A stretch of 64,000 nucleotides of DNA from positions 36,724 through 100,723 of the forward strand of contig CALRGO010000001.1 in assembly GCA_943357895.1 (NCBI GenBank), written 5' to 3'. The DNA is from Parcubacteria group bacterium (GTDB taxonomy: Bacteria; Patescibacteriota; Minisyncoccia; UBA6257; UBA11618). This document shows positions 10,588-39,842 of the stretch, piece by piece. A program made the translations under genes and the position numbers. Every line of letters starts with the position of its first letter. The stretch's first letter is position 1. The notes under the pieces were generated by a model, which worked only from the letters and a program-made list of their open reading frames with translations, was not told the origin of the DNA and did no database searches.

Positions 10588-12240
10588 TCACATCCGCTCC
10601 GGCACCTCAATACCCAAAAGCCACAGGCCGTTCTTGATCACTTGGGCGGAGGCGACAACAAGCGCTAGGCGAAGGGCGCGAGCCTCGCCAACTTCCAGCA
10701 CCGGCACGGCGTCGTAAAACCGGCTGAACTCCTGCGCGAACTCGTTTAAGAATGTCGCTATGATATGCGGCGCATCGAGCGAATATGCCTGCCGTACCGC
10801 CTGCGGAAACTCCGCAATGCGCTTTAATAAACGCGCTTCGTGAGACGACGGAGTGATTAGTGGGTAGTGATTAGTGGGTAGTGACGCCGAAACGTCGCCC
10901 GCCTTTTCCAAAATAGCCTTGGCGCGCACGTATGCGTACTGGATGTAGGGCGCGCTATTACCTTGGATAGAGAGCGCCGCGTCCCACGAAAAGGCTATGT
11001 CGTGCTCACGGCCCATAGAAAGCATGTTGTATAAAATAGCGCCCACGCCCACTTCCTTAATACCCTTGGTTTTTACCACCGCCTCCTTTAGACCGTCTTC
11101 TAAAAAGACTATCCCGCCTTCACGCGTAGAAATTTTCTTGCCGTTAATCGTAACTACGCCGTAACTTACGTGCTTAAACTTTTCCTCCGGATAACCCATA
11201 AGCCCCAAGGTTTTAAAAATCTGCCGTAAATATAATTCCTGCTCGTGGCCAACCACATAAATTATTTTTTCCGCCTGCGGATATTCCTTAAGCCGCCAGC
11301 GGCCAACCGCGATGTCGCGCGCGCTGTAGAGCGACGCGCCATCTGACTTCACGAGCAAGAAAGAGGGGAGGCCAAACTTATCAAGATTGACTACTACCGG
11401 CCGGCCCTGCCCCGACGAAGCCATGGTTGTTAAGGGGCCCGCCCCGCGAAGCCCAGAGGGCGAAGTGGGGTCGCCGTATGCCGCCGCGCCCTTTACGAGC
11501 GCTTCGTCCACCGCTTCTTTTATAAAGGTCTCATAAAAACTCTCACCGTGCCATAAGTCAAAGTTAATGCCGAATAGGGCATAGACCCGCTCAAAATTCT
11601 TTACGCTTATATCGCGGAACTCCTGCCACAGGGCGCGTAGCTCCACATCACCCCCCTCGAGCTTGCGGAAAAGCTCCCGCGCCTCGTCTTCCAATTCTGG
11701 CGATGACTTTATCTCTTTCGTCATCCGCACGTATAAATCGAGCAAGGTGCGTATTGGGTCTTTTTTAAAGGCTTTCCTATCACCCCACTTTTGGAATGCA
11801 AGCATAATCTTCGCTAAAGACATGCCCCAGTCGCCAAAGTGGTTCGTAGTAATTACCGTATAGCCATTTGCCTTATAGATATTTGCGAGTGCGTGACCAA
11901 TAGCATTGTTGCGCGCATGGCCCATGTGCATAGGCTTCGCAATGTTGGGGGCGGAATATTCGAGCATGACGGTCTTACCCGCGCCCGATGCATTCCATCC
12001 GTACGACTCTTTCTTCGTCATGACCTCGTGGAGTACATGCTCCGTAAGCGCGTTTAAATTAAACGATATGTTTACGTACCGGCCGGTAACGACGACACTA
12101 CCGAATAACGGGTTATTCAACCCGCGAATTTTTTCCGCCACATCTTCCGGCTTTTCGCGGAAGCAGGGGATAGCCAAATCCGCCCCCACGCCCTCGGGTG
12201 GGATCTCTATCTTTGATGCGATCTTCTCTAAGCCGAACAT
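10588..12240 (-). CDS. argS: arginine--tRNA ligase
   Basis: 550 aa with class I HMGH motif (KPMHMGHARN), N-terminal Arg_tRNA_synt_N-like region and DALR-type C-terminus. Two in-frame repeat insertions: heptamer array at 10852-10884 and GC-rich element at 11434-11472. Confidence 0.9.
   Translation of the reverse strand: MFGLEKIASKIEIPPEGVGADLAIPCFREKPEDVAEKIRGLNNPLFGSVVVTGRYVNISFNLNALTEHVLHEVMTKKESYGWNASGAGKTVMLEYSAPNIAKPMHMGHARNNAIGHALANIYKANGYTVITTNHFGDWGMSLAKIMLAFQKWGDRKAFKKDPIRTLLDLYVRMTKEIKSSPELEDEARELFRKLEGGDVELRALWQEFRDISVKNFERVYALFGINFDLWHGESFYETFIKEAVDEALVKGAAAYGDPTSPSGLRGAGPLTTMASSGQGRPVVVNLDKFGLPSFLLVKSDGASLYSARDIAVGRWRLKEYPQAEKIIYVVGHEQELYLRQIFKTLGLMGYPEEKFKHVSYGVVTINGKKISTREGGIVFLEDGLKEAVVKTKGIKEVGVGAILYNMLSMGREHDIAFSWDAALSIQGNSAPYIQYAYVRAKAILEKAGDVSASLPTNHYPLITPSSHEARLLKRIAEFPQAVRQAYSLDAPHIIATFLNEFAQEFSRFYDAVPVLEVGEARALRLALVVASAQVIKNGLWLLGIEVPERM
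10852..10884. repeat. heptamer tandem array inside argS (encodes SLPTNHYPLITPS)
   Basis: agtgattagtgggtagtgattagtgggtagtgacg, which is in frame on the minus strand. Confidence 0.65.
11434..11472. repeat. GC-rich ~38-bp repeat element, copy 1, in-frame in argS (encodes DPTSPSGLRGAGP)
   Basis: ggggcccgccccgcgaagcccagagggcgaagtggggtc is the reverse complement of the element at 39597-39635. Confidence 0.7.
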
Positions 12241-12244
12241 GACG

Positions 12245-12276
12245 AAGTGGATAGTGAGTAGTGGTTAGTGGATAGA
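12245..12276. repeat. heptamer tandem array in the argS / trmL-like spacer
   Basis: agtggatagtgagtagtggttagtggatagat. Confidence 0.6.
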
Positions 12277-12286
12277 TACTACGATA

Positions 12287-12772
12287 CTAGCGTAGTTTAT
12301 TTTTAGCTATTTCGAAAGCGATTATACCAAAGGCGACGGCGACGTTAAGCGACTCCTTTGCGCCATGCATGGGAATACTAATAACGGCGTCGCACTTATT
12401 AATAATCACCCTCGGCAGGCCATCTACTTCATGCCCCACAATGAACGCGAGCTTGTGCATATTGTTTTTTAAGCAATCAGCCTCGTAATAGGGGGCGGCA
12501 TCCGGCGTAAGCTCAACGGCGCATATAAAATATCCCGCAGCTTTTAACTTGCGAATGCAATCAGCCGTGCGGGCGTACTTTTCCCACGGCACGGTTTTTT
12601 CCGCCCCCAGCGCCGTCTTTTCTAACATCTTCCGCGCACTGCCGAGCATGTCCGCCGGAGACGGCGTTATGCCGCACAAATACAGCCGCTCGATACCCGC
12701 GGCGTCCGCCGTACGAAACATAGACCCCACGTTATGCGCGCTTCGTATATTAGATAAAATACCTATTGCCAT
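12287..12772 (-). CDS. SpoU/TrmH-family RNA 2'-O-methyltransferase (TrmL-like)
   Basis: SpoU motif 1 NVGSMFRTADAAG; size ~160 aa. Start placed at MAIGILSN instead of the upstream Met in the ORF track. Confidence 0.7.
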   Translation of the reverse strand: MAIGILSNIRSAHNVGSMFRTADAAGIERLYLCGITPSPADMLGSARKMLEKTALGAEKTVPWEKYARTADCIRKLKAAGYFICAVELTPDAAPYYEADCLKNNMHKLAFIVGHEVDGLPRVIINKCDAVISIPMHGAKESLNVAVAFGIIAFEIAKNKLR

Positions 12773-12888
12773 AGACGCTTGACAGTATATAGCAAAAAGC
12801 GCATTGTGCAATTAGCAGTGCGCCGACGTAGGCGCACATCATAATCATCCTGAAACGAAGGAGCGACACCAAGAAACGAGGAGGTGCC

Positions 12889-13209: not shown

Positions 13210-13235
13210 AGAAATAACGTAGCACGATGCCGCGT

Positions 13236-13290
13236 TTACGGCGGGGGAGAGTCAAACGAGCCACGACTCTCCTCCCGCCGTATTATTTTT
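13236..13290 (+). terminator. intrinsic terminator (CGGCGGGGGAGAGTC...GACTCTCCTCCCGCCG + T-run)
   Basis: Long GC hairpin followed by tattattttt. Confidence 0.65.
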
Positions 13291-13337
13291 CAGATTGAAA
13301 ACGCCGCCGAAAAAGCATATGATACCGATACCGCAAA

Positions 13338-13421: not shown

Positions 13422-13424
13422 CAG

Positions 13425-23092: not shown

Positions 23093-25147
23093 ATGGATCT
23101 GAACCGGAAAAAATTCGAAACAGAAGTTGACGGGAAAAAACTCGCCATCGAAACCTCGCGCCTCGCCGAGCAGGCGAACGCGGCGGTAATCGGCACATGG
23201 GGCGGCACCACCGTGCTCGCAACGGCGGTAATGACGGGCGTTGACTCGCCGCGCGACTACTTGCCGCTCTCCGTAGAATTCGAGGAGCGTTTTTACGCTG
23301 CGGGTAAAATACTCGGCGGCCGCTACATGCGCCGCGAGGGGAGAGCGAGCGAGAACGCAATTCTTTCCGCCCGCATTATCGACCGCACGATACGCCCGCT
23401 TTTCGACCAGCGCGTACGCCGCGACATACAGATAGTTATCACCGTACTTTCGTACGAAGAGGATTCCAGCCCCGTAACGCTCGGACTCGTAGCCGCCTCC
23501 GCGGCGCTCGCCATGTCTGACATTCCGTGGAACGGGCCGGTTGCGGGCGTTTCGATACGCAAAGACAACTGGACGGCATTCGTTGCCGGTACCGCGGATA
23601 AGATAAACATGATCGAGCTCGAAGGGCTCGACGTACCCGAAGCAGAAATCGTCGGTGACTTCACTGCCGCGATGGCGGAGATCAAGAAGCTCGTCGAATT
23701 CCAAAAAACGATCGTAGCCCAAATCGGTAAGCCAAAGGCGGAGGTAATGTTAAAAACTCCGTCACCGGAACTCGTAGCAAAAGTACGCGGTTTTCTTGCA
23801 GATAAGTTAGAACCTGCAATGTACGTAGTCTCCAAAATAGACCGCGTGGCGAACGTGTCGCATATCCAAAAAGACCTGATGGCGTTTTTGAAAGAAAACG
23901 AGACGACGCAAAGCGACTTAGATGACGCGGGTCGCGTATTCGAAGACTATGTAGACGAAATCGTGCATAAAAATATTTGTAGTGCTAAAGACGGCGAAGA
24001 AAAGCGCCCCGACCACCGCAAGTTGGGCGATGTACGCGACCTGCACGCCGAAGTAGGCGTCTTAGAGCGTATTCACGGCTCGGCATTATTCATCCGCGGC
24101 AACACGCAGGCGCTCGCAACCGTAACACTCGCCCCGCCGGACACAAACCAGCTCGTCGAAAATATCTTCTTCACGGGCGAAAAGAATTTCATGCTCCATT
24201 ACAACTTCCCGCCGTACTGCACGGGGGAGACGGGGAGCTTCCGCGGGCCGGGCAGGCGCGAAATCGGCCACGGCAGTTTGGCGGAAAAGGCTTTGGCGCG
24301 CTTAATCCCTACGCAAGACGAATTCCCGTACACCGTGCGTATCGTTTCCGAAATTTTATCTTCTAACGGATCATCCTCTATGGCATCCGTTTGTGGCGGC
24401 TGCTTAGCGCTTATGGACGCGGGCGTGCCGATAAAGAAAATGGCGGCTGGTATCGCCATGGGTATGATGAGCGACGAAAAGAATGGTATTTATAAAATTT
24501 TGACAGACATCCAAGGGCCGGAAGATCACTACGGCGACATGGACTTTAAGGTGGCTGGTACGAAAGACGGCGTAAACGCCGTGCAGATGGACGTTAAGGT
24601 AGATGGCGTAACGCCCGATATTATTAGCCGCACGCTCGAGCAAGCAAAGCGCGCCCGCTTACACATCATGACCGCCATGGAAAAGGCAATCACTACCCCG
24701 CGCGCTGACATTTCGAAATATGCGCCCGTCGTGATGAAAGTCATGATTAACCCCGAACAGATTGGCGACATCATCGGCCCCGGCGGCAAGATCATCAAGG
24801 GCATTATCGAGGCCACGGGGATTATCAACATGGATATCCGCCAGACGGGCGACGTATTCATCTACGCGCACGATAAAGATTCGGCGCTTGCGGCAAAGAA
24901 CTGCGTCGACGACATTGCCCACGAGTATAAGGTGGGGGACATAATCGAAGGCACGGTTGAACGCATCTTGGAATTCGGCGCGATTGTCGAATGGGGCAAC
25001 GGCAGGAGCGGCATGATCCATGTCTCGGAATTAAAGAACGGTTATGTAAAGAGCGTAGAAGAAGTCGTCCACTTGGGCGACGTCGTGCAAGCGAAAATCA
25101 TCCGCCTCGAAGACGGCAAGGTGGGGTTGAGCTTGAAAGGGCTTTAA
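23093..25147 (+). CDS. pnp: polyribonucleotide nucleotidyltransferase (PNPase)
   Basis: Two RNase PH domains plus KH and S1 domains. 684 aa. Confidence 0.95.
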   Translation: MDLNRKKFETEVDGKKLAIETSRLAEQANAAVIGTWGGTTVLATAVMTGVDSPRDYLPLSVEFEERFYAAGKILGGRYMRREGRASENAILSARIIDRTIRPLFDQRVRRDIQIVITVLSYEEDSSPVTLGLVAASAALAMSDIPWNGPVAGVSIRKDNWTAFVAGTADKINMIELEGLDVPEAEIVGDFTAAMAEIKKLVEFQKTIVAQIGKPKAEVMLKTPSPELVAKVRGFLADKLEPAMYVVSKIDRVANVSHIQKDLMAFLKENETTQSDLDDAGRVFEDYVDEIVHKNICSAKDGEEKRPDHRKLGDVRDLHAEVGVLERIHGSALFIRGNTQALATVTLAPPDTNQLVENIFFTGEKNFMLHYNFPPYCTGETGSFRGPGRREIGHGSLAEKALARLIPTQDEFPYTVRIVSEILSSNGSSSMASVCGGCLALMDAGVPIKKMAAGIAMGMMSDEKNGIYKILTDIQGPEDHYGDMDFKVAGTKDGVNAVQMDVKVDGVTPDIISRTLEQAKRARLHIMTAMEKAITTPRADISKYAPVVMKVMINPEQIGDIIGPGGKIIKGIIEATGIINMDIRQTGDVFIYAHDKDSALAAKNCVDDIAHEYKVGDIIEGTVERILEFGAIVEWGNGRSGMIHVSELKNGYVKSVEEVVHLGDVVQAKIIRLEDGKVGLSLKGL

Positions 25148-25149
25148 AG

Positions 25150-25305
25150 CCGGCGCGCACGCGCTTTTCGGAAACAGGGTAACTTTTTTCCTGCGAAAAA
25201 GTTCCCTTCGCTCTCGGCCTGATAAATCCATCTGCGGATGGATTACCCAGAGCTATCAGGCCTCCGAGATGTTCCTTAAAGCACGTCCACGCCGGCTTTT
25301 TTTGC
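25150..25305 (+). ncRNA. highly structured ~150-nt region immediately 3' of pnp, ending in a GC clamp plus T7 (terminator / possible sRNA)
   Basis: Outer pairing GCCGGCG...CGCCGGC followed by ttttttt; internal hairpins GGG-T-AACTTTTTT...AAAAAGTT-CCC and GGCCTGATA[AATCCATC-tgcg-GATGGATT]...TATCAGGCC. Confidence 0.4.
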
Positions 25306-25766: not shown

Positions 25767-25785
25767 GTTTTCGTGGGCGAGCGGA

Positions 25786-25977
25786 CCCTTCGTGCCAAGG
25801 CAACCTGAGTGGAGGCGGATAGCAAATCCCCGAAGAAGGAGATAAAAGCCGAGGAAAAATTGCTGTCTGAGTTCCGCAGCGCTTGCGCGGAGGGCGAGTT
25901 CGATTTTTCCTGTCGGCTTTTACGACGAGAGAGGTTGGATTTGCATACGCCGTAACGGGTTGCCGCGGCACGAAGGG
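25786..25977. ncRNA. candidate structured RNA, paralog 1 (~190 nt)
   Basis: ~93% identical to the reverse complement of 58579-58769. The terminal 11-bp helix CCCTTCGTGCC/GGCACGAAGGG is replaced in the paralog by CCCGTAGCGCC/GGTGCTACGGG, which is compensatory. There are inner helices GGCAACC/GGTTGCC and TAAAAGCCGAGGAAAAA/TTTTTCCTGTCGGCTTTTA. No conserved ORF. Confidence 0.5.
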
Positions 25978-26032: not shown

Positions 26033-27112
26033 ATGGATGAATTAAACCAAGCCTCGCAAAACAGCAGCCTGCCGCAGGTACCACCACCACAAACTAATAT
26101 CGTGCCGCCGCCGCCCACGACACCAGAAGTGCTCGTGCGCACGATGGAGAGCGATATACAATCCGTACGCGCAACCGGCGAACCGGTGGCGCAACCTGTG
26201 ACCCCACTTCGCCCTTCGGGCTTCGCGGGGCAAGCGCCCATCACCCCACAAATAACACCAGTCGCACCTGTAGCCGCGCCCGTACAATTCCCCACACAAA
26301 CGGCGCCAGCGCCCGCCCCAATGCCCGCAACCGAAACAAAATCCGGTAGACTCCTCCTGTGGTTTTTCATACTCACTCTTATCGTCGGTATCGGTTGGGC
26401 GACGTATAAATACGGCCTACCTGCGTACCGCGCGATGGTGCCAAGTAAACCAACAGCCGAAGCGCCTGCGCAGGGAGTAGCGCTAGAGCCGAGCGCAGCA
26501 GGACTCGCCGTACCGCCTGAACCAGCACCCGTAGCGCCCGCAATAACGCCGCTCGGCGCAACGCAAGATGCATTACCTAAGATAGAAACCGACGGTACGC
26601 TGCCCTCGATTACTGCGGCGCTCGTAGCTGAAGCCAAAAAGACAAAGTCAGCAAGCGGAACCATCCAGGAAGTCTCCCTACTTAATGCCGGCGCGCCGAT
26701 GAGTTTCGCTACCGTACTAGGGGTACTCTTACCGGAAGCGAAGACAAACGGCTTGGATGGTATTCTTACCGCCGCCTTCGACCCTATCTTTTCCGCATAC
26801 CTCTTTTACGACGACCGCGGCGCATGGCCCGGCTACATAGCCAAAATTAACCCCGCTTCCCAAATAGACGCCGCAACTCTCGCGAGCCGTTTGCAAGCTG
26901 TCGAGACAAGCTCATACAAAAACCTCTTCCTCGTAGATGCCGGCGCACCCACCACATTCCGCACCGGCCAAGCGCGCGATAAGTACATCGACCGCTTTGT
27001 ACCCTTAGCAACCGACGGTGCGCTTTTCAGCTACGGTATCTTCGGCGACTACGTGATCATTAATACCTCCAATAACGGATTAGTGAAGGCTCTGGATCTG
27101 TTAAAGCTGTAA
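26033..27112 (+). CDS. proline-rich single-pass membrane protein (hypothetical)
   Basis: 359 aa: Pro-rich N-terminus, one TM (LLLWFFILTLIVGIGW), and a C-terminal globular domain. Contains the in-frame GC-rich repeat at 26201-26238. Confidence 0.55.
   Translation: MDELNQASQNSSLPQVPPPQTNIVPPPPTTPEVLVRTMESDIQSVRATGEPVAQPVTPLRPSGFAGQAPITPQITPVAPVAAPVQFPTQTAPAPAPMPATETKSGRLLLWFFILTLIVGIGWATYKYGLPAYRAMVPSKPTAEAPAQGVALEPSAAGLAVPPEPAPVAPAITPLGATQDALPKIETDGTLPSITAALVAEAKKTKSASGTIQEVSLLNAGAPMSFATVLGVLLPEAKTNGLDGILTAAFDPIFSAYLFYDDRGAWPGYIAKINPASQIDAATLASRLQAVETSSYKNLFLVDAGAPTTFRTGQARDKYIDRFVPLATDGALFSYGIFGDYVIINTSNNGLVKALDLLKL
26201..26238. repeat. GC-rich repeat element, copy 2 (encodes TPLRPSGFAGQAP)
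   Basis: accccacttcgcccttcgggcttcgcggggcaagcgcc. Confidence 0.7.
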
Positions 27113-27116
27113 CGAC

Positions 27117-27228
27117 GAAGTGGATAGTGAGTAGTGGGTAGGGGCTAGAAACGACGACGTAAAAAACCGGCTTTCGCCGGTTTTTTAATCTACTCACTAC
27201 TCACTACTCACTAACCACTACTCACTCG
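27117..27228. repeat. inverted pair of heptamer arrays flanking an intrinsic terminator (27141-27178)
   Basis: gaagtggatagtgagtagtgggtagg ... aaaaaaccggctttcgccggtttttt ... ctactcactactcactactcactaaccactactcact. Confidence 0.65.
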
Positions 27229-27230
27229 CC

Positions 27231-28775
27231 CTACTTTTCTCGCAGGCGGTATGCAAAGGCTTCGGCGACATGAGCTTCGGCAACAGCGGGCACACCCTCG
27301 ATGTCAGCAATCGTGCGCGCCACTTTAAGTAGGCGGTAATAGCCGCGCGCGGAGAGCGTGGCGGACTTCCAGACCTTGCCGAAAAACGCCTGCGCTGACA
27401 CCGAAAGCACAACACTCTCCGAAACCTGCTTTGACGAAAGCGTACTATTTAGCACACCCTGCCGTACAACCTGCACTGCACGCACGCGTGTCACAACCTC
27501 ACGCATACTTTTTGTATCCGTCCCTCCTCCGTCGCCCTGCGGGCTATGGAGGACAGGCGCACGCGAAAGATCCGCTAATTCTACATGCGGTACCTGCACT
27601 TGCAGGTCGATACGGTCGAGTATCGGCCCCGAAACTTTCTTTTTGTACCGCAGAATCTCATGCGCGCCGCACGCACAATCGCGACGGCTGTCGCCATAAT
27701 AACCACACGGGCAGGGGTTCATAGCAGCAATAAGAATAAATCGAGCAGGGAGCGAGAGCGAACCATTCGACCGCGCGATAGTTACATGCCCACCCTCTAA
27801 GGGCTCGCGTAACGACTCCAAAACATCACGGCGGAATTCCGGCAATTCATCAAGAAACAAAACGCCTTTATGCGCGAGACTAATTTCACCGGGACGGGGG
27901 TATGAGCCACCACCAACCACTGCGGCGGCAGATGCCGTATGGTGCGGCGCGCGGAATGGCCGCTCCGTCACCGCGTGGCGTGCGTTAAGCGCACCAGAAG
28001 CCGAATAAATACGTGTCACTTCAATTACCTCGTCGCGCGTAAGCGCGGGCAAGAGGCCAGCGAACGCCTGTGCGAGCATCGTCTTACCACTCCCTGGTGA
28101 GCCGGACATAAGCACATGATGACCGCCGCACGCAGCGATAAGAAGTGCGCGCTTCGCCGCCGCCTGCCCACGCACGTCCGCAATATCGACTGGATTAGTA
28201 AACGGCTCAAACACAGCCTCATCTACGTGGGTGGGGGAGATCGGTGCGCGCCCTTCGAGATGCGCAATTAACTCCATAAGAGTGCGCACGGGAAATACGG
28301 CAACACTCCCGGCAAGCGCCGCCTCCGCGGCATTTACCGCAGGCACATAGAGCTCGGTAAAACCTTTTTCGCGCGCCATGCACGCAACATTCAAAACACC
28401 CATGACTGACCGCACACCGCCATCAAGCGCGAGCTCGCCCAAAAACATCCTACCCTTCGTTTCGAACTTTCTAATTTGCTCCGTCGCTACCAAATAACCC
28501 ACCGCAATAGCGAGATCATATTGCGACCCCGTCTTTTTAATATCCGCAGGCGCTAGGTTTACCACGATCTTGCGATTCTCTTGCGACGGTGGCTTTACAC
28601 CACTATTTTTCAAGGCAGCTGAAACGCGCTCACGCGCCTCACTTAACGCCTTATCTGCTAAACCAACTATAGAAAAAGAATGGAGGCCGACATGCAAGTC
28701 GACCTCCACCTCCACACACCGCGCGTCAATCCCCGAAAGCTCCCCCGAATATACACGGGAAAAGCGAGTATTCAT
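27231..28775 (-). CDS. comM: Mg-chelatase-like AAA+ competence protein ComM/YifB
   Basis: Lon-like N-terminal domain, Walker A GSPGSGKT, and a zinc-ribbon insert CPCGYYGDSRRDCAC. Confidence 0.85.
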   Translation of the reverse strand: MNTRFSRVYSGELSGIDARCVEVEVDLHVGLHSFSIVGLADKALSEARERVSAALKNSGVKPPSQENRKIVVNLAPADIKKTGSQYDLAIAVGYLVATEQIRKFETKGRMFLGELALDGGVRSVMGVLNVACMAREKGFTELYVPAVNAAEAALAGSVAVFPVRTLMELIAHLEGRAPISPTHVDEAVFEPFTNPVDIADVRGQAAAKRALLIAACGGHHVLMSGSPGSGKTMLAQAFAGLLPALTRDEVIEVTRIYSASGALNARHAVTERPFRAPHHTASAAAVVGGGSYPRPGEISLAHKGVLFLDELPEFRRDVLESLREPLEGGHVTIARSNGSLSLPARFILIAAMNPCPCGYYGDSRRDCACGAHEILRYKKKVSGPILDRIDLQVQVPHVELADLSRAPVLHSPQGDGGGTDTKSMREVVTRVRAVQVVRQGVLNSTLSSKQVSESVVLSVSAQAFFGKVWKSATLSARGYYRLLKVARTIADIEGVPAVAEAHVAEAFAYRLREK

Positions 28776-29908: not shown

Positions 29909-31708
29909 ATGAATACTAGCAAAAATATGAACGACCGGCAAGCAGAAGCGGCCTACCACAAGGGAGGGCCGCTCCTTATTGCCGCGGGTGCCGGAAGCGG
30001 CAAAACACACACCCTTACGCAACGCCTGCATTATCTTTTAAATGAACTAAAGGTGCCACCGGCGCGCATTCTCGCCATCACTTTTACGAACAAGGCGGCA
30101 GAAGAAATGAAGAAGCGCGCCGGCGCCCCCAAAGAACTTTTCATCGGCACATTCCACTCCTTCGGCGCACGTCTCCTCCGCGCCGAAGCGCGCCGGCTCG
30201 GCCGGAGTGTCGGCTTTACCATCTTCGACGAAGACGATACCGGCTCACTCCTTAAAAAAATTGGTAAGAACCGCAACCTACCAAAAGAGACGTGCGGCCC
30301 CGCCGTATTGTCGCGACTCATGGGTAAAGTAAAAAGCGAATTCATAGCACCCGAAATGGCGGCTAAAGGGACGCGCGACTTAGACCCCGATACCGCCCGC
30401 GCCTGCTACGAGGACTACGAAAACCTCCTTAAGGAAAACAACGCGTTCGACTTCGACGACCTCATCGAAAAGCCCGTGCAATTGTTCCGCAATTACCCCG
30501 AAGTACTTGAACTCTATCGTGGCAAGTACGACCACGTACTGATAGACGAATACCAAGATATCAACGCCGCGCAGTACGAACTCGTACGCTGTCTCGCAGG
30601 TGGCCACGGCAACCTGAGCGTAGTGGGGGACGACGCGCAGTCCATCTACGCCTTCCGCGGCGCTGACTTCCGCAACTTTTTAAACTTCGAACGCGACTGG
30701 CCGGCCGCAAAGATCGTCATGCTGGAAGAAAATTACCGCTCGACCCCGTTAATACTCGAAGCAGCGAACGACGTTATCGGCCACAATAAAACTCAGCGCA
30801 AGAAAAACCTGTGGACGAAAAATGAGCAGGGCGAAAAGATTAAAGTCTTCGCGGCGGAAAACGAATATATGGAAGCCGAATGGATTGTGAAGACCGCCAT
30901 TACCAATTGGCGTAAGGGAAAGCCACTCGAATCCATGGCTGTAATCTATCGTACCAACGCGCAGTCACGGCCAATAGAACAAGCGCTTATTTCCGCGGGC
31001 GTGCCATACCGTATGTTCGGCGGTATCCGCTTTTACGAACGTAAAGAAATAAAAGATATTGTGGCTGGTCTGCGCTTGGCGGCAAATCCGTTAGATAGCG
31101 TGAGCGCCGACAGGCTCGACAAGAATTTTTCCAAAGGCAAAAGCCGCCTCCTTATAGACGCCCTACCGAAGATGGGCAGCGCATCACCCAGTGAAATCAT
31201 CGACTACTTCGTTTCAAATACTAACTACCTCGACTACTTAAAGAATAACTATAAGAACTCGCAGGAGCGTATCGAAAACGTACGAGGACTTTTAACCTTT
31301 GCGCGCGACTTTGCAAAAGACGGTTTAGCCGCGTTTTTAGAACAAGCAACCCTAGCGCAGAGCCATGACAACCCGAGTGGGAAGACAGGCGTAAACCTCA
31401 TGAGTATTCACATGTCGAAGGGGCTCGAATTCGAAAGCGTATTCGTCGCCGGCGTAGGCGAGGGCACCTTGCCGCACCACCGCGCGCTTTCCTCCGGCGG
31501 CGAAATGGAAGAGGAGCGGCGCTTAATGTACGTGGCGATTACCCGCGCGGCGAAGCATTTACATATGTCCTTCTCAAACGTCCCCTCAAGATTCCTCTAC
31601 GAGATATCCGGCGACTTGGTCGAATTCATAAATAATAAAGTTTCGTCTAATCGAGCTAACCGTCAAGGCATGCCCGACGAAGAAGAAATGTGGCTGGATT
31701 ACGATTAA
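29909..31708 (+). CDS. UvrD/PcrA/Rep-family SF1 DNA helicase (short, 599 aa)
   Basis: Walker A AGAGSGKTHTL, motifs II DEYQD and VGDDAQSIY. Confidence 0.85.
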   Translation: MNTSKNMNDRQAEAAYHKGGPLLIAAGAGSGKTHTLTQRLHYLLNELKVPPARILAITFTNKAAEEMKKRAGAPKELFIGTFHSFGARLLRAEARRLGRSVGFTIFDEDDTGSLLKKIGKNRNLPKETCGPAVLSRLMGKVKSEFIAPEMAAKGTRDLDPDTARACYEDYENLLKENNAFDFDDLIEKPVQLFRNYPEVLELYRGKYDHVLIDEYQDINAAQYELVRCLAGGHGNLSVVGDDAQSIYAFRGADFRNFLNFERDWPAAKIVMLEENYRSTPLILEAANDVIGHNKTQRKKNLWTKNEQGEKIKVFAAENEYMEAEWIVKTAITNWRKGKPLESMAVIYRTNAQSRPIEQALISAGVPYRMFGGIRFYERKEIKDIVAGLRLAANPLDSVSADRLDKNFSKGKSRLLIDALPKMGSASPSEIIDYFVSNTNYLDYLKNNYKNSQERIENVRGLLTFARDFAKDGLAAFLEQATLAQSHDNPSGKTGVNLMSIHMSKGLEFESVFVAGVGEGTLPHHRALSSGGEMEEERRLMYVAITRAAKHLHMSFSNVPSRFLYEISGDLVEFINNKVSSNRANRQGMPDEEEMWLDYD

Positions 31709-34787: not shown

Positions 34788-37700
34788 GAACTATCGCAAT
34801 AATTGTCACCCTCACAACGCTTTTCGGTGCAGTTATTTTTACACACGCGCAAATGGCAATGCCTAATATCCCCGGGCAAGACATGCCAATAAAAGTCCAA
34901 GAGACGGCAAAAAATAATCCCGGAGCGCAGACCGTCAGCCCAAGTTTCAATCCTATTCCCACCGTTGCCGACATAGTAAGCGGCATAGGCGGATCCTTCT
35001 TGGGTTGGATCAGCTTAAAGGCCATCGGCTACGTCTCATTCACGCTAAGCTATATCGCCGGACTTATCGGCTCGACGGCGTTTACGCTCGCGGGAATCTT
35101 AGTAGAATTAGGTCTCTATTTCAACACCACAATCCTCAACAGTCCGATAGTCCAGCTCGGCTGGCGCTTCTGCCGCGACCTCGCGAACTTAGGCTTCACG
35201 ATTGGTATTGTAGTCATCGCATACGCCACTATGCTCGGCATCGAAAGCTATGGCATGAAGAAGATTCTTATAAACTTCGCCTTCGCGGCTATTATCGTAA
35301 ACTTCAGCTTCTCTATAGCGGGGTTCGCGATAGACATATCGAACATGCTCACGCACTTTTTCGTGAACGCCTCAATCGGGGGCGGTGGCGTGTCGGGGTC
35401 AGGGGCAAACATCCATAAATTTGCCGAAACTCTTGCATCCGCCTTCAGCCCGCAAAAACTACTTATAACGGACTCTCTCAATCTAAAGGCATACGAGTCG
35501 CTTGCGGACGACGGCATGATTGCCGCAGTAATATCTATATTCTTCGTCGCGCTCTTCACCGCCCTCGCCGCGCTCGGCATGCTTATGGTAGGACTTACCA
35601 CTATTTCGCGATTTATACGTCTTTCAGGGCTTGTAATTGTCATGCCAATTGCAATCCTTTGTGCCGCATTCCCCAACACAAGAAAGTGGTGGGGGAAATG
35701 GTACGATGATTTTTTTAGCCAACTTACCTACCTGCCCATAGCGACATTCTCTATGTATCTCGTCATTATGTTCGTGCAAATTAAGGCGGATGTGGGATTC
35801 GAAACAAAAGGGATAGATATGAAAAATCTCATAAATTCCTTTGAACAGGCAAAAACTGCGGGGAGCGGAATTACCGCAACCAAGACCCTTGAGCTGATGG
35901 CTGCGCCGCTTCAAACGATTACGGATATGGTACTCGTACTTGCCATGTTATTCATCGGCATCACCAAGTCGGCTAAATTGAGCGGCGCGGGAGGGGATAT
36001 CGCTCTCAAGTGGACGACGGGGTTGAAAGACTGGGCAGTAGGCGCGCCAAAAGGAGCTGCCGGATGGGCGGGCCGTAAATACTTGAGCGGCGGCGGAGAC
36101 GGAACAAAAGAAGGTAATCGTGGCACGCGGCTCGCAAGCTTTTTACAACGAATCCCTCTCATTAGTCGTTTTGCGCCCCAAGTAAATAAATTCGCCGCAG
36201 GGACGAGTAAAAATCTCGGCAATCTCGAAACTGAATACAAAGGTATGGGCGACGTACAGCTACGAAACGCCCTCTACAACCCCGACATTAAGCTTAACCC
36301 CGAGCGCATGGCGGCGGCGGCAAAAGAAGCCGTTGCGCGCGGACTACTGAACAACACCGATCAAGAAAAAAATATATCACAGGAAAAATTAAACGAATTT
36401 ATCCCCGCCCTCAAACGCTACGGCTTCGACACAGAAATATTAAAGAAGGCGCCGCATCTCTATGGTAAATTCGGCTTAAATATTGAGAAAAACAACGAAG
36501 GGGAATATATAAATAAGGAAGATGGTAAAAAGCTTGACGACGCCATAAAAGCCTTTAAGCCCGAAGATGGGGAAGATCTGCCCGTGGAGGCGCTTGAGGA
36601 CATTGAAGTGGTTCGGCGGCTTTCCGGCGACCAACTAGCAAAACTACCGAAGAACAAAGAACATCGCGCGGCATTCTCAGACACCATCATCCGCCTACGA
36701 GAAAAAATAGGGTCTACGGAATTCGATAAGTATATGAAAAAAGCGTTTGCCAAAAAAGAAGCGGCGGCAGCACTCACCCCACAACTTCTCGGTAATAAAG
36801 ATGTAGTCCGTAATCTCACAAACGATCATTTAAAGTATCTCAGTGACACTGGAAAGGAAAAACAACGAGATGCATTCCTTGCGACTATCAACGAAAAAGA
36901 TACCACCACTGGAGAATACAAGTTATCAGAAAAAGAATTCACCGAATTCATGGGGAGTAATTTTGCAAAGGCTAAAGACATCAACGAAATTAATCCGGAT
37001 ATCATCCGCAACGATCGCATATTCGGCAAGCTGCAGGGGATGCATATCAGCCAACTCCAAAAAGAACCGGAAACGGCGCAACATATTGCCGTGCTCGAAA
37101 AATTACGCGACGAATACCGAAACGCTTTTGCTGACCCAAAAACCCTTACCCGCCTTGATAGCCTCGCAAAAGTTATCGTAGATAACAAAGATAATTCAAC
37201 TTGGAGCGCAATCGATACAGCTGAAGGAAAAGCCCCGTTCAACGAAATCGAAATGGATTACCGTAGGCGCCACCCCGACGAAGAAAAACAGCAAAAGAAA
37301 GAAAAAATAAAAGTAGAGATAAAAGAAGAAAAGCAGAAAGAAAAAGGGTGGTGGGAAGATGATAATAAGGGGGGTAATCCGCCGAGCGCAGGCCCGCAGA
37401 AGCCCCCTCAAAATCCGCCCGCACCACCCTCCTCACCAACAGGAGGATCGGCTTCAGTAGCACCGACATATACGTTAGCACCACAAAAACCAACACAGCC
37501 GGTAACACCACCTCCGCAGCCAGCGCCCGCAACCACTCCGCAGCCGAAGCCGACACCTAATAAACCTCAGCGCACGGAACCCAAAGAAACGGAACCAACG
37601 AACTCAAAGGGCCCTGATATCGGAAGAATGATAGACGCCGTACTGGAGAGCGAATCAAGAACGAATAACCCCGAATACGTCCTGCAGGAAGAATTCCCAG

Positions 37701-37930
37701 AACCACCCCCACTCCTCGTACCTATGACACCAAAGACGACGCCGATTGCGCCGCCTGACCTCAACAAGCTCGCAAGGATTGAAGAAAATCCAATACAAGA
37801 GGGAAGTAAGACTGCATCCGTTACGGCAACGCCCCCACCCACCCCGATTCTACCCGAACCGATACGTACCACCTTGCAGAAAGAAAAGGATGAGAAGGAT
37901 AATCAAGAAAGGGGAAATAACACCATATGA
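34772..37930 (+). CDS. large polytopic membrane protein, VirB6/TrbL-like, with long K/E- and Pro-rich C-terminal extension
   Basis: 1052 aa: signal peptide, ~6-8 TM helices in residues ~70-330, then a coiled/charged region and PPSAGPQKPPQNPPAPP... tail. Confidence 0.5.
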   Translation: MHKLIRTIAIIVTLTTLFGAVIFTHAQMAMPNIPGQDMPIKVQETAKNNPGAQTVSPSFNPIPTVADIVSGIGGSFLGWISLKAIGYVSFTLSYIAGLIGSTAFTLAGILVELGLYFNTTILNSPIVQLGWRFCRDLANLGFTIGIVVIAYATMLGIESYGMKKILINFAFAAIIVNFSFSIAGFAIDISNMLTHFFVNASIGGGGVSGSGANIHKFAETLASAFSPQKLLITDSLNLKAYESLADDGMIAAVISIFFVALFTALAALGMLMVGLTTISRFIRLSGLVIVMPIAILCAAFPNTRKWWGKWYDDFFSQLTYLPIATFSMYLVIMFVQIKADVGFETKGIDMKNLINSFEQAKTAGSGITATKTLELMAAPLQTITDMVLVLAMLFIGITKSAKLSGAGGDIALKWTTGLKDWAVGAPKGAAGWAGRKYLSGGGDGTKEGNRGTRLASFLQRIPLISRFAPQVNKFAAGTSKNLGNLETEYKGMGDVQLRNALYNPDIKLNPERMAAAAKEAVARGLLNNTDQEKNISQEKLNEFIPALKRYGFDTEILKKAPHLYGKFGLNIEKNNEGEYINKEDGKKLDDAIKAFKPEDGEDLPVEALEDIEVVRRLSGDQLAKLPKNKEHRAAFSDTIIRLREKIGSTEFDKYMKKAFAKKEAAAALTPQLLGNKDVVRNLTNDHLKYLSDTGKEKQRDAFLATINEKDTTTGEYKLSEKEFTEFMGSNFAKAKDINEINPDIIRNDRIFGKLQGMHISQLQKEPETAQHIAVLEKLRDEYRNAFADPKTLTRLDSLAKVIVDNKDNSTWSAIDTAEGKAPFNEIEMDYRRRHPDEEKQQKKEKIKVEIKEEKQKEKGWWEDDNKGGNPPSAGPQKPPQNPPAPPSSPTGGSASVAPTYTLAPQKPTQPVTPPPQPAPATTPQPKPTPNKPQRTEPKETEPTNSKGPDIGRMIDAVLESESRTNNPEYVLQEEFPEPPPLLVPMTPKTTPIAPPDLNKLARIEENPIQEGSKTASVTATPPPTPILPEPIRTTLQKEKDEKDNQERGNNTI

Positions 37931-38649
37931 CACTCGAACAAATTGCCCGCCTCTACGTAATCTTTAAGACGCTCCAACCGGAAATTAAAGAATGGATCGC
38001 GTCCGACGACACGAGCGCCATCGTGAAGTCTATTGCCGCGCGGTTTATCTTGTCTGACGAACAGGAGCGCAAGCTCCCACTACTCGTCCTCCGTCTTGTC
38101 ACGCAAGATTTACCACCAGAAAGCTTTAAAGCAGAGCTTGCGAAAGAAACGGGTGTGGACGCAGATCTCGCTAAAAGCATTACTGAGGCGATAGCAAAAG
38201 AGGTGATAGAGCCCATCGGAGCGGCCCTCCGCTATGGCGGGATAAACACGAACCTCTTAGGGTTCAACGCTCCGGCTCCCACTTCCCCACTTCGCCCTGC
38301 GGGCTTCGAGGGGCAGGCGCCTACGCATTCCGAACCAGCGCCACAAGCGCAAACTACAACTGAAGCGCCTACGGAAACCGTCACCACGCCAGCACCGACA
38401 CCTCTACAACCGTTCATCCTCCACGAAGAGCCGCGCGCAGCAGCCGCACAAAGCGGTACGAGGTCCTTCAGTTACTCCCCACAGGCGGATACGGGCGTGG
38501 AAAGCACCGCTTCTCCGCGCGTCGTAATCGAGCGCGTCGTGCATTACAGCCAACTCCGCACCCCGCTTAATATTGCGAGCACAAATAAAAATATACCAAG
38601 CGGAGATCAGCCAAAACCCAAGCTGCCACAATCTAAGTGGTTCGTATAA
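37927..38649 (+). CDS. hypothetical protein (240 aa) with in-frame GC-rich repeat
   Basis: Overlaps upstream gene by 4 nt. Repeat at 38285-38321 encodes PTSPLRPAGFEGQAP. Confidence 0.5.
   Translation: MTLEQIARLYVIFKTLQPEIKEWIASDDTSAIVKSIAARFILSDEQERKLPLLVLRLVTQDLPPESFKAELAKETGVDADLAKSITEAIAKEVIEPIGAALRYGGINTNLLGFNAPAPTSPLRPAGFEGQAPTHSEPAPQAQTTTEAPTETVTTPAPTPLQPFILHEEPRAAAAQSGTRSFSYSPQADTGVESTASPRVVIERVVHYSQLRTPLNIASTNKNIPSGDQPKPKLPQSKWFV
38285..38321. repeat. GC-rich repeat element, copy 3
   Basis: ccccacttcgccctgcgggcttcgaggggcaggcgcc. Confidence 0.7.
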
Positions 38650-39131
38650 AACCCATGCAATTCCAAGTACCACAATACATCGATGTCGAGGATAAGATTG
38701 TAGGACCCTTAACCCTTAAGCAGTTTTTCTATATCGCGACGGGATTTCTTACGATATTCGTTTCATTCTTTATTCTTACGACATGGCTCTGGCTTATAAC
38801 GTCCGTAGTTGTCGGCTCCACATCACTCGCCTTTGCGCTTATAAAATATAATGGCAGACCGCTCATGACCGTGACCATCGCCGCCCTGCACTACTATATG
38901 GGCGGGCGCACCTATACGTGGCAAAAAATAGATATAACGAAGAGACAGGCTCCGGCAGGATTACTCGCAAAACTCGGACTCACTATGACAGCAGGCACGC
39001 GGCCAGTTGCGGGGCGTGAAACATCCGTAAACGGATTCTTTAGCCGCAGCCTGCCGGCACAAGATAGGGCGGAAATAATCCGCCGCACAGATGGCGACAG
39101 AAGCGTCGCCAAACGAATAGACTATAGGTAA
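38637..39131 (+). CDS. PrgI/VirB3-like small two-TM T4SS protein
   Basis: 164 aa with a GPLTLKQFFYIATGF motif followed by two TM helices, positioned directly upstream of the VirB4-like ATPase as VirB3/PrgI homologs typically are. Confidence 0.5.
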   Translation: MVRIKPMQFQVPQYIDVEDKIVGPLTLKQFFYIATGFLTIFVSFFILTTWLWLITSVVVGSTSLAFALIKYNGRPLMTVTIAALHYYMGGRTYTWQKIDITKRQAPAGLLAKLGLTMTAGTRPVAGRETSVNGFFSRSLPAQDRAEIIRRTDGDRSVAKRIDYR

Positions 39132-39140
39132 AATCTAAAT

Positions 39141-39842
39141 ATGGCTCAAGAACCTCTCGCAACCCAAAACCTCCTCGAAGTCGAACGCATCGAGCGCAAC
39201 TGCATCGTGCTGAAAGACGGCGGCCTGCGCTCGGTGATTCTCGTATCGGGCATGAACTTCGAACTGCGCTCGGAAGACGAGCAAAATGCAGCACTAGGGA
39301 GCTACCAAAATTTCCTAAACGGACTCGATTTTTCCGTACAGATTTTTATACATTCACGAAAAATTAACATCGACGGATACATACAGGAACTTTCGGGTAT
39401 CGAGCGGCAGGAGGTGAATGATTTATTAAAAGGGCTTATCGGGGGGTACAAAGACTTCGTGGCTTCCCTTGTTGCCGACAACCCGATTATGGAAAAAACA
39501 TTTTTCGTAATCGTGCCGTACGACTCCGTACTACCCGCAAACCAACGCGCGATATTCGACGCTATTGCCGGATTCTTCAAGCGGAAAAAAGTAGATGACC
39601 CCACTTCGCCCTCTGGGCTTCGAGGGGCGGGCCCCACCCCCGACTCGCAAAATGAAAGCGCACGCACCGGCGTAGGGGACAGTGCTTTTGCCGCACTCGC
39701 CCAGCGCACCGAGCAGGTAGTAAGTGGCCTTTCGCAAATCGGCCTGCGCGCCGTACCACTCGAAGAAGACGAGCTCGCGGAACTCTTATACAACCTCTAT
39801 AACCCCGAAACAGTGGAACGCCACGTCATCCCACAAGAATAA
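39141..39842 (+). CDS. hypothetical T4SS-associated protein (233 aa), weakly reminiscent of a VirB4 N-terminal region
   Basis: IVLKDGGLRSVILVSGMNFEL...FSVQIFIHSRKINIDGY block. Carries the in-frame GC-rich repeat at 39597-39635 (DDPTSPSGLRGAGPTP). Confidence 0.45.
   Translation: MAQEPLATQNLLEVERIERNCIVLKDGGLRSVILVSGMNFELRSEDEQNAALGSYQNFLNGLDFSVQIFIHSRKINIDGYIQELSGIERQEVNDLLKGLIGGYKDFVASLVADNPIMEKTFFVIVPYDSVLPANQRAIFDAIAGFFKRKKVDDPTSPSGLRGAGPTPDSQNESARTGVGDSAFAALAQRTEQVVSGLSQIGLRAVPLEEDELAELLYNLYNPETVERHVIPQE
39597..39635. repeat. GC-rich repeat element, copy 4
   Basis: gaccccacttcgccctctgggcttcgaggggcgggcccc. Confidence 0.7.

Follow-up and report, generated by a model that had tools for sequence, protein, structure and literature searches.

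Four copies of a short GC-rich repeat lie in the window, the 64,000-nt stretch of DNA from a Parcubacteria group bacterium that was analyzed here. The window is core chromosome, as judged from the best 25 of 83 matched Pfam families. The relevant genes and features are as follows.

10588-12240, minus strand: ArgRS gene, identified by Pfam and orthologs
11401-11437, minus strand: decayed older copy CCCCTTAACAACCATGGCTTCGTCGGGGCAGGGCCGG, in the ArgRS gene, adjoining copy 1 downstream
11434-11472, minus strand: copy 1, in the ArgRS gene; 33-nt core 11438-11470; encodes DPTSPSGLRGAGP; 60.6 bits
26033-27112: gene of a conserved Pro-rich membrane protein, host of copy 2, confirmed by orthologs
26200-26238, plus strand: copy 2, in the Pro-rich N-terminal linker of the membrane protein; core 26202-26234; encodes TPLRPSGFAGQAP; 64.4 bits
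27522-27561, plus strand: doubtful diverged relative CCTCCGTCGCCCTGCGGGCTATGGAGGACAGGC, inside the ComM/YifB gene (27231-28775, minus strand)
37927-38649: gene of a 240-aa protein, host of copy 3, confirmed by orthologs
38283-38321, plus strand: copy 3, in a P/A/T-rich linker of the 240-aa T4SS-like operon protein; core 38285-38317; encodes SPLRPAGFEGQAP; 58.8 bits
39141-39842: gene of a TraC-like protein, host of copy 4, confirmed by orthologs
39597-39635, plus strand: copy 4, in a variable linker of the TraC-like protein; core 39599-39631; encodes DPTSPSGLRGAGP; 59.3 bits

The genes of copies 3 and 4 stand in a T4SS-like operon with TrbL/VirB6, PrgI, a VirB4-like ATPase, and a T4SS pilin. 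A first-pass annotation had reported the four copies on these strands, and its coordinates were correct to within 1-2 nt. It had also given the hairpin a four-nucleotide spacer; this literal pattern has no matches in the window since the actual spacer, from GCCCT to GGGC, is 2 nt.

The 16-nt left half of the repeat, GACCCCACTTCGCCCT, matched the window four times compared to 0.37 expected, at 11457-11472(-), 26200-26215(+), 38283-38298(+, with 2 mismatches), and 39597-39612(+). The right half, GGGCTTCGMGGGGCRGGC, also matched four times (0.28 expected), and four matches to either half were reached in none of 100 shuffles. A covariance model built from 64 copies and run over the 64-kb window found exactly the four copies, at 59-64 bits and E values of about 1e-11 to 1e-12, with nothing else above noise. 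The density in the window is about one copy per 16 kb. CCTCCGTCGCCCTGCGGGCTATGGAGGACAGGC in ComM/YifB was not counted as a fifth copy: it is 63% identical to copy 2, the covariance model recognized only its inner hairpin (E = 1.3), and the ComM/YifB ortholog in L188 has the same length at this site.

The copies are 85-97% identical to one another over 39 nt and are read in two frames. Copies 1 and 4 share 38 of 39 nt (97%), with a TCT loop and a CGGGCCCC tail as lineage-specific variants common to both. They encode DPTSPSGLRGAGP, and copies 2 and 3 encode (T/S)PLRP(S/A)GF(A/E)GQAP, just as had been described. The absence of introduced stops, also noted before, extends to the whole element, which has zero stop codons in all six frames. 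All four copies do lie in coding sequences, which are long ORFs that are each backed by orthologs. This is not an enrichment, since about 92% of the window is ORF and the element is free of stops in six frames.

Comparison of the 64 aligned copies gave a unit with the form CCCCACTTCG, a hairpin, and then CTTCG-N-GGGGCARG, most commonly 33 nt long. It starts abruptly (A in 63%, then C in 94%) and ends abruptly after CARGC, with random, unrelated flanks on both sides. The constant frame, CCCC-ACTTCG ... CTTCG-N-GGGG-CARG, has a GC-rich hairpin in its middle; CCCC and GGGG on the outside can pair with each other, and the CTTCG motifs and CARG tail are conserved and unpaired. Tandem periods of 33 nt (L044 and L051) and in-phase heptamer-array flanks (L187, L071, and L127) fix the unit at 33 nt. 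Across the family, units are 33-45 nt, and the common sizes of 33, 39, 42, and 45 nt are all multiples of three. There was no consistent target-site duplication in the 64 aligned flanks, and the only terminal inverted repeat in these copies was the 4-bp CCCC/GGGG pair. When Rfam covariance models were run on the window, only tRNAs reached the gathering score, and around copy 4 nothing was better than E = 0.75. The literature searched gave no description of the element either, in agreement with the earlier failure to assign it to a described family.

A metagenome scan with the middle of the element left unconstrained showed that it is a member of a modular family, with a constant frame and a freely variable inner hairpin. 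Among the matches listed, the same frame encloses at least 91 distinct inner segments, nearly all hairpins, with at least 44 distinct stems, and the mean perfect inner stem is 4.0 bp compared to 0.42 in shuffled sequences (maximum 0.76 in 1000). In an alignment of 27 sequences, six of the seven inner pairs vary on both sides, with pairing in 95% of inner-helix cells. The 42 double-changed cells in this alignment compare with 13 in shuffles (the observed value was reached by 0 of 500), and sliding the partners against each other lowered pairing over the whole structure from 97% to at most 51%. The outer stem also covaries (CCCA/TGGG, CCAC/GTGG, and TCCC/GGGA). Some distant variants have an internal, non-terminal CTACG. 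The perfect inner palindromes could stem from the copying process instead of selection.

Orthologs of the host genes were then compared. The window ArgRS is exactly 33 nt longer at copy 1 than an 87%-identical ortholog (L060), and copy 1 is absent in two others (L061 and L062). Copy 1 and its decayed neighbor CCCCTTAACAACCATGGCTTCGTCGGGGCAGGGCCGG form a head-to-tail pair. L060 has a single degenerate copy, GACCCGACTTCGCCAGAGGCTTTGTCGAGGCAAGGCCGG, which aligns with the right half of the decayed window copy and outscores all 436 control windows. In the AlphaFold model of ArgRS (mean pLDDT 86), residues 259-276, which hold the insert, are the only segment with pLDDT below 50, and the ortholog alignment shows that this loop is variable in length. 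The insert had been placed in the catalytic core. It is within catalytic-domain sequence, but its position in a predicted disordered, length-variable surface loop puts it outside the active-site core.

Empty sites in relatives were found for copies 2 and 3 as well as for copy 1. The site of copy 2 is empty in six orthologs with 77-81% identity and holds a variant in P0244. An independent, near-identical copy occurs at another position of this gene family (P0259/L189), where P0256 has a longer variant. Neither of the syntenic orthologs, in L063 and L064, has copy 3. The copy 4 site is patchily occupied across the clade. It is filled in L065, in L066, which has a compensatory GCTC/GAGC stem, and in a distant ortholog (L067), where the copy shows decay at synonymous sites; in L063 and L064 the central 18 nt are missing. 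The ortholog alignments place copies 2, 3, and 4 in indel-rich linkers. With sharp boundaries, random flanks, and close orthologs that lack the insert, the repeat is one of DNA, inserted in frame into unrelated genes, as was first proposed.

The element is not special to its source lineage and occurs across many CPR lineages. Exact copies were found at 58 loci in MAGs of at least eight of these lineages, labeled Peribacteria/Peregrinibacteria, Saccharibacteria, Roizman-, Uhr-, Berkel-, Wildermuth-, Andersen-, and Curtissbacteria, at a low number of 1-4 per MAG. The scan with the free middle added at least 120 further copies. CPR/Patescibacteria hosts were judged by the source names of orthologs and loci, and some carrier MAGs have deposited labels of Gamma- or Alphaproteobacteria or Lentisphaerae. 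No matches to the element were found in the viral contigs searched.

Copies usually insert directly 5' of a C, as singletons or head-to-tail tandems. They were seen at the edge of an older copy, in heptamer tandem arrays, in the loops of other hairpin repeats, and in coding DNA. L057 and L011 have heptamer or heptamer-like repeats on both sides of the element, and in L008, L013, and L017 it is nested in another hairpin repeat. A majority of copies are mid-ORF, 47 of 65 in one set and 74 of 120 among the metagenome-scan matches listed (62-72%). All six frames are used, and copies also lie outside ORFs in either orientation. Among the matches listed, lengths that preserve the frame account for 71 of 74 mid-ORF copies compared to 27 of 46 elsewhere (Fisher p = 4.5e-7). 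The intragenic copies counted are biased to one orientation, with 85 sense and 36 antisense (p = 1e-5). The use of six frames with an orientation bias argues against selection for a particular peptide. The count of coding against intergenic copies has a coding majority, in which the copies are tolerated, not preferred.

We consider it likely that each of the four repeats is a copy of a non-autonomous mobile DNA element, very small in size and widely distributed in CPR/Patescibacteria. The best reading is of an element like the REP, RPE, and SDR elements that is tolerated in linkers. A 33-nt unit would be copied into new sites, mostly just 5' of a C, and copies landing in length-tolerant surface loops or low-complexity linkers would survive selection. 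Coding copies would survive because the unit is free of stops in every frame and its common sizes are multiples of three. Such inserts are probably translated within the linkers, most likely as short P/S/T/G/A-rich peptides. After insertion, ordinary coding evolution would lead to synonymous decay, compensatory stem changes, and in-frame partial deletions. Part of the similarity between copies may be due to gene conversion. The substrate of the copying is presumably the folded hairpin, with single-stranded DNA as its most plausible form. That the frame is conserved across classes suggests a putative trans-acting factor, which may be an enzyme encoded elsewhere in the host genomes, as proposed for RAYT, a Y1 transposase whose gene is flanked by the REP elements. 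In a tblastn search with approximate Y1-transposase queries, 1.3 Mb of element-bearing loci gave no match better than E = 0.15.

Another possible explanation, which we consider unlikely, is that selection keeps a functional RNA hairpin, such as a REP-like mRNA stabilizer, a site for an RNase or RNA-binding protein, or a ribosome-pausing signal between domains. The strong stem covariation, the G-T wobble pairs on the forward strand, the compensatory GCTC/GAGC change inside a gene in one lineage, and the inter-domain linker positions would all fit, and the forward strand is sense in 70% of the intragenic copies counted. However, the forward strand is antisense in 30% of coding copies, intergenic copies are numerous and of either orientation, and sister lineages decay or partly delete their copies without visible harm to the gene. 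In addition, folding of the window copies is stronger than that of shuffles on the reverse strand (z = -2.0) and not on the forward strand (z -0.3 to +0.9), and no Rfam family matches. Just as unlikely, in our estimation, is a more far-reaching possibility, that the conserved frame is recognized by a hairpin-specific DNA or RNA machinery, so far undescribed, that CPR have in common. The inner hairpin would then be a specificity or cargo module, and the elements, with the lineage-specific heptamer arrays in which they nest, would make up a minimal mobile or templated-insertion system of a new class, by which protein linkers are built in reduced genomes.

It is less probable still that the frame is a signal for DNA uptake or other protein binding by the CPR competence or chromosome machinery, with copies that arise through biased uptake and recombination and are tolerated in weakly constrained segments, like USS/DUS. 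In its favor, very different CPR lineages have conserved the frame motif, the copies lie in variable protein segments, and CPR bacteria are dependent on DNA uptake. Also, the "empty" site in L188 shares a 9-nt match with the element end (p ~0.03), and that in L064 has a gapped match to its 5' part (p ~0.02). USS and DUS are short motifs, spaced at about one per kb, that originate by substitution and not by insertion. In contrast, the copies here are true, clean length insertions of a fixed 33-nt unit, including head-to-tail tandems, and are sparse, with four per 64 kb in the window and 1-4 exact copies per MAG. Uptake sequences also have nothing that corresponds to the variable inner hairpin.

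An ancestral peptide motif or convergent low-complexity sequence is very improbable: all four sites are P/S/T/G/A-rich linkers with GC-rich codons, in which short matches often arise by chance (alignment scores of control windows go up to 27), yet the nucleotide identity holds across two frames, the element occupies non-coding sites and all six frames elsewhere, no shuffled window had four matches to either half-pattern, and close orthologs without the insert contradict the ancestral peptide with divergent nucleotides that the first-pass annotation had named as the contrary case. An oligonucleotide or chimeric join in assembly or sequencing can practically be dismissed even for a metagenome contig, as the same element is at orthologous positions in independent ENA/NCBI/Logan assemblies with lineage-specific substitutions (L065, L066, and L067) and every host gene stays in frame.

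As a mobile element, the repeat can be compared with known systems. In the account of PMC10969869, RPEs are palindromic elements of about 100-150 bp in Rickettsia that lie in frame in unrelated housekeeping genes at fold-compatible positions and also in non-coding DNA (Ogata et al. 2000, 2002). The likeness to RPEs drawn earlier is supported. The CPR element is also a palindromic repeat that adds a short peptide in frame to unrelated genes, in all four host genes, at variable linkers that include the disordered ArgRS loop; it is found at non-ORF sites and in six frames, with independent copies elsewhere in the same gene family. It differs in its size of 33-45 nt and is set apart from RPEs by its constant frame, freely variable hairpin, and CPR hosts.

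REP/REPIN sequences are imperfect GC-rich palindromes of 20-40 bp, with GTAG- and CGTC-tagged superfamilies, and intragenic REPs encode extra residues in Opitutus terrae, R. conorii, and other species (PMC3733652; PMC3116915). The CPR element is likewise an imperfect GC-rich palindrome in this size range, with a covarying stem and conserved unpaired motifs. In contrast to REPs, which are predominantly extragenic, often form inverted dimers, and usually number tens to thousands, it is mostly intragenic, occurs as singletons or head-to-tail tandems, and has few exact copies per MAG. GTAG and CGTC, one of which stands unpaired as a tag at one end of a REP, are absent on both strands of the four window copies.

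MITEs (Correia/NEMIS, ERIC) are similarly non-autonomous and dispersed, and sometimes form in-frame fusions with host genes. They are typically at least 100 bp, with IS-derived terminal inverted repeats and target-site duplications, neither of which was seen in the CPR element. The SDRs of heterocyst-forming cyanobacteria, which Elhai and colleagues are said to have described in 2008, are reportedly 21-27 nt long and of unrelated sequence, and reportedly nest in heptamer tandem arrays and other hairpins, occasionally in genes. The CPR element resembles what is reported of SDRs in being under 50 nt, mobile-looking, and nested in such places, and differs in its longer units and its hosts. We know of no frame-plus-variable-hairpin architecture or filter for lengths of 3n described for SDRs.

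In the tiny, streamlined genomes of CPR/Patescibacteria, one would not expect selfish DNA within an essential gene such as that of ArgRS. The insertion of mini-palindromes into coding DNA, known in Rickettsia and a few REP-rich species, would also shape the proteins of the CPR, a large bacterial branch that is for the most part uncultivated. The element may be the source of many short "hypothetical" ORFs and unusual low-complexity peptides in CPR proteomes, and it could serve as a marker for recent insertions, gene conversion, and annotation artifacts. Its modular design and sharp 3n-length filter provide a natural experiment on which protein sites tolerate insertions.

The first-pass annotation had described four copies of a GC-rich repeat in the window, and its two half-patterns, searched separately, each matched four times at the reported places. 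The left half, GACCCCACTTCGCCCT, was found at 11457-11472 (reverse strand), 26200-26215, 38283-38298, and 39597-39612 (4 matches compared to 0.37 expected; none of 100 shuffles reached 4). The right half, GGGCTTCGMGGGGCRGGC, lay 2 nt downstream of each left-half match (4 compared to 0.28 expected). The spacer is, therefore, 2 nt; the literal pattern, written with an N4 spacer, had 0 matches in the window. A covariance model built from 64 copies scored the four window copies at 59-64 bits and the rest of the window at noise. The copies and their host genes are as follows.

Copies of the element in the window and their host genes
11434-11472, reverse strand: copy 1, in ArgRS (10588-12240, reverse strand; Pfam tRNA-synt_1d and DALR_1; thousands of homologs)
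26200-26238, forward strand: copy 2, in a 359-aa protein that is Pro-rich at its N-terminus, has a hydrophobic segment, and is well conserved in its C-terminal domain (22 homologs)
38283-38321, forward strand: copy 3, in a 240-aa protein of a T4SS-like operon
39597-39635, forward strand: copy 4, in a TraC-like protein (PF26593) of the same T4SS-like operon

This operon also encodes TrbL/VirB6-like, PrgI, VirB4-like ATPase, and T4SS-pilin proteins. Copies 1 and 4 were 97% identical over 39 nt and the other copies were at least 85% identical. Copies 1 and 4 also share rare variants, a TCT loop and a CGGGCCCC tail, and their sequences point to probable recent copying or gene conversion inside this genome. 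A stretch of ComM (27522-27561) was considered as a fifth copy and rejected; it was 63% identical, only the inner hairpin was matched (E = 1.3), and there was no length difference in the ortholog.

The two encoded peptides were as claimed, with DPTSPSGLRGAGP coming from copies 1 and 4 and (T/S)PLRP(S/A)GF(A/E)GQAP from copies 2 and 3. Since ORFs make up ~92% of the window, finding all four window copies in coding sequence is the chance expectation. The notable point is that no copy disrupts its gene, in keeping with the claim that all are in frame, and the intact frames suggest that the inserts may be translated. AlphaFold modelling of ArgRS (mean pLDDT 86.3, pTM 0.87) left a single segment with pLDDT below 50, residues 259-276. 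This is the insert, and it is located between a helix and a strand. In an alignment with yeast ArgRS, the insert fell in a gapped, poorly aligned stretch (chain residues ~303-330). The insertion had been placed in the catalytic-core region; it does lie inside the catalytic-domain sequence, but, by the model and the alignment, in a variable surface loop rather than at the active site. Alignments with orthologs placed copies 2, 3, and 4 in indel-rich, low-complexity linkers.

The ArgRS orthologs of loci L061 and L062, from other genomes or metagenomes, carried a short loop (EPDEKGGKP) at the insertion site. The ArgRS of locus L060 had one degenerate copy at the site, which scored above all 436 control windows. 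The window ArgRS carries a fresh canonical unit directly upstream of that same copy, decayed here, so that a tandem insertion against the edge of an earlier copy was observed directly. Empty sites in relatives were also found for copy 2, which was absent in six orthologs with 77-81% identity, and for copy 3, which was absent from the syntenic genes of L063 and L064; insertion polymorphism was, thus, directly observed. In P0244, another ortholog of the copy 2 gene, this site held a variant. P0259 (locus L189), an ortholog with 59% identity, had a near-identical copy, ACCCCACTTCGCCCTTCGGGCTTCGCGGGGCAGGCGCC, ~30 codons away in the same linker, and P0256 had a longer variant at this second position, so that insertion into one linker was recurrent. 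The copy 4 site was occupied in L065 and in L066, where the stem was compensatory (GCTC/GAGC). In L067 (74% protein identity) the copy had decayed at synonymous positions, and in L063 and L064 the central 18 nt were missing. This pattern fits an insertion of some age that has since evolved as ordinary coding sequence, with a partial deletion that kept the frame. A general rule that empty sites are decayed relics or need microhomology was rejected because only L060 was significant. L188 and L064 were marginal (p ~0.02-0.03, uncorrected), and significance was reached neither at the copy 3 sites nor, for ArgRS, in L061 and L062. An "empty frame" (CCCCACTTCGNGGGGCA), the precursor that would lack the inner hairpin, was found in none of 189 loci.

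The ends of the element were abrupt. Across 64 aligned copies the onset was sharp (A in 63%, C in 94%, then invariant), the end came after CARGC, and the flanks were random. The unit is 33 nt, from CCCC to CARG, usually inserted just 5' of C. This length follows from three observations: in heptamer arrays with a nested copy (L187, L071, and L127) the array phase assigns the final C to the flank, head-to-tail tandem copies (L044 and L051) have a 33-nt period, and the window ArgRS is exactly 33 nt longer than an 87%-identical ortholog. The element is a discrete unit of 33 nt (+3k).

Diverged relatives found in the loci with the covariance model had covarying inner stems (GCTC/GAGC, GCTCC/GGAGC, and GCTCGCC/GGCGAGC) and outer stems (CCCA/TGGG, CCAC/GTGG, and TCCC/GGGA). 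An unbiased metagenome scan for the frame with a free middle, CCCCACTTCG-N{7,21}-CTTCGNGGGGCARGC, returned at least 120 copies. Among the listed copies the inner segment took 91 different forms, and there were 44 different stems of at least 3 bp; the mean perfect stem, counted from the outside in, was 4.0 bp compared to 0.42 bp when shuffled (maximum 0.76 in 1000 shuffles), and 77% had a stem of at least 3 bp compared to 2.6% when shuffled. Covariation was measured in 27 distinct members of 40 nt, aligned without gaps. Six of the seven inner pairs changed on both sides, 95% of inner-helix cells were paired, and there were 42 double-change cells compared to 13 in shuffles, a value that 0 of 500 shuffles reached. 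When the partners were slid, the paired share of the whole structure fell from 97% to at most 51%. The hairpin is, thus, under structural constraint. Taken together, the stem covariation and the free-middle scan show that the element is a constant frame (unpaired ACTTCG, CTTCG-N, and CARG) around a freely variable hairpin. G-T pairs are present on the forward strand. The canonical copy folds at -21 kcal/mol on the reverse strand compared to -14 kcal/mol on the forward strand, and the reverse strand carries GCGAAGC-type motifs, which form very stable mini-hairpins. The canonical copy shows a 7-nt periodicity (CTTCGCC-CTTCGGG-CTTCGCG), which fails in members with longer hairpins and was taken as incidental.

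Exact matches to CCACTTCGCCCTNNGGGCTTCGNGGGG were found at 58 loci in a scan with one genome per species. Nearly all were labelled as MAGs of Peribacteria/Peregrinibacteria, Saccharibacteria, or Roizman-, Uhr-, Berkel-, Wildermuth-, Andersen- or Curtissbacteria; a few were MAGs that carry, by source label alone, the names Proteobacteria (Gamma- or Alphaproteobacteria) or Lentisphaerae. A scan of viral contigs gave 0 matches. In metagenome contigs, several family members directly adjoined putative tRNA gene ends, judged from their sequence, either the 5' end (L075, L084, and L111) or the position right after the encoded CCA (L090).

To describe how the element coexists with genes, a copy counted as mid-ORF when the open stretch around it spanned at least 120 codons and reached at least 15 codons beyond the copy in both directions. 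This applied to 47 of 65 copies in the genome set and 74 of 120 among the listed metagenome copies. Neither share exceeds CPR coding density, so insertion into coding sites is tolerated but not favoured. All six reading frames were used (16, 11, and 5 copies in the sense frames of the genome set, and 15 antisense in total). In the two sets combined, counting the listed metagenome copies, the sense orientation was favoured, with 85 copies compared to 36 in antisense (p = 1e-5). The clearest signature was in unit length, which was a multiple of three in 71 of 74 mid-ORF copies compared to 27 of 46 elsewhere (listed metagenome copies; Fisher p = 4.5e-7). This frame-preservation filter is what is expected from blind insertion followed by the purging of frame-breakers from genes.

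The window holds other repeats, listed here.

Other repeats of the window
3072-3110, 4379-4417, 9921-9964, 12241-12284, 27114-27157, 27189-27227, 44187-44230, 44468-44490, and 55613-55651: heptamer arrays (CTAHYCA)n
10847-10890, reverse strand: in-frame tandem heptamer array (CACTAMY)n in ArgRS, encoding SLPTNHYPLITPS
25782-25965 and 58590-58773: two copies, inverted and 93% identical, of a rod-like palindrome (~175-184 nt)
25251-25298 and 44296-44343: inverted-repeat pair (48 nt, 90% complementarity)
25147-25176 and 44388-44417: inverted-repeat pair (30 nt, 97% complementarity)

The (CTAHYCA)n arrays are 23-44 nt long, most of them 39-44 nt, fill intergenic gaps, and resemble cyanobacterial STRR repeats. 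Three directly adjoin start codons (NusA, pyrophosphatase, and ArgRS), and an inverted pair lies on either side of a bidirectional terminator (~27158-27188). Three terminate with the octamer CCACTTCG, with which the hairpin element begins (9 matches in the window compared to 1.85 expected). Arrays of this kind often surround the hairpin element in other CPR loci. The array in ArgRS occupies a second length-variable loop, so a second repeat class also colonises this essential gene; in orthologs P0006, P0009, and P0010 the same loop has other repeat-like inserts (DSGFRIHDSG...SFLNLESCI). The ~175-184-nt palindrome (RNA folding z = -4.9 on one strand and -4.6 on the other) had no Rfam or Pfam match and looks like a putative MITE-like element. 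Part of this palindrome, the 21-nt GCCAAGGCAACCTGAGTGGAG, occurs again at 30603, 31362, and 32596. The two inverted-repeat pairs join two intergenic regions 19 kb apart. In L064, compared to the window and L063, an extra ~1.9 kb with small ORFs (2555-4426) lies between the TraC-like and VirB4-like genes and contains a diverged member of the element family (3422-3474, reverse strand). Loci L008, L013, and L017, which belong to one MAG, have a composite of two repeat families (GAGATTGCCACGCCCTCC[element]GGAAGGGCTCGCAATGACA), in which the element occupies the loop of a second dispersed hairpin repeat. Copies nested in heptamer arrays and in other hairpins were, thus, seen directly. The window belongs to a 253-kb metagenome contig, which the source names of close orthologs assign to Patescibacteria (Pacebacteria-like). 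It is core chromosome, with dnaA, dnaN, ribosomal, and tRNA-synthetase genes. Cumulative GC skew reaches its minimum at dnaA and dnaN (46081-48781), AT skew changes sign there as well, and the skew switch lies near 48 kb; this region is the replication origin. Transcription of the T4SS-like operon (33.4-44.2 kb) and of most genes left of it runs head-on to replication, which is unusual.

As for mechanism, a hairpin-specific trans-acting enzyme may copy the element via single-stranded DNA, by analogy to what is proposed for RAYT and REP, and ectopic gene conversion could contribute. No candidate for a mobilising enzyme was found in the window (the best 25 of 83 matched Pfam families), by tblastn, or between inverted copy pairs. 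The tblastn search for a Y1 transposase or RAYT had no match in 1.3 Mb of loci, which is a weak test. Inverted copy pairs ~0.7-1 kb apart were rejected as transposase brackets because no transposase gene lies between them; the pair in L057 is within UvrD-like and KsgA-like ORFs and the pair in L013 is in and around unrelated ORFs. Of the rival explanations weighed for the element, an uptake or binding signal and a functional mRNA hairpin are possible though less probable, and an ancestral peptide and an artefact are improbable.

Among known systems, the parallel drawn with Rickettsia palindromic elements holds for behaviour, since both enter unrelated genes in frame and at positions that tolerate them; the element is three to four times shorter and belongs to another phylum. 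It resembles REP in size and shape, and intragenic REP copies are documented. In contrast to REP, it is mostly intragenic, has no GTAG or CGTC tag and no inverted dimers, and had no RAYT in the weak tblastn test. Cyanobacterial SDRs reportedly nest in heptamer arrays and other hairpins, and the element does likewise. Unlike MITEs, it lacks terminal inverted repeats and target-site duplications. Rfam had no match to the element at gathering or relaxed thresholds, and literature searches by topic, sequence, and peptide turned up, among the papers searched, no account of the element or its peptides, nor of a comparable element in CPR. This agrees with the earlier statement that it could not be linked to a described repeat family in this lineage. 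The finding is real and its first reading was essentially right. Within the known class of mini-palindromic mobile repeats, the element represents a new family with a variant architecture, and it is newly documented in CPR.
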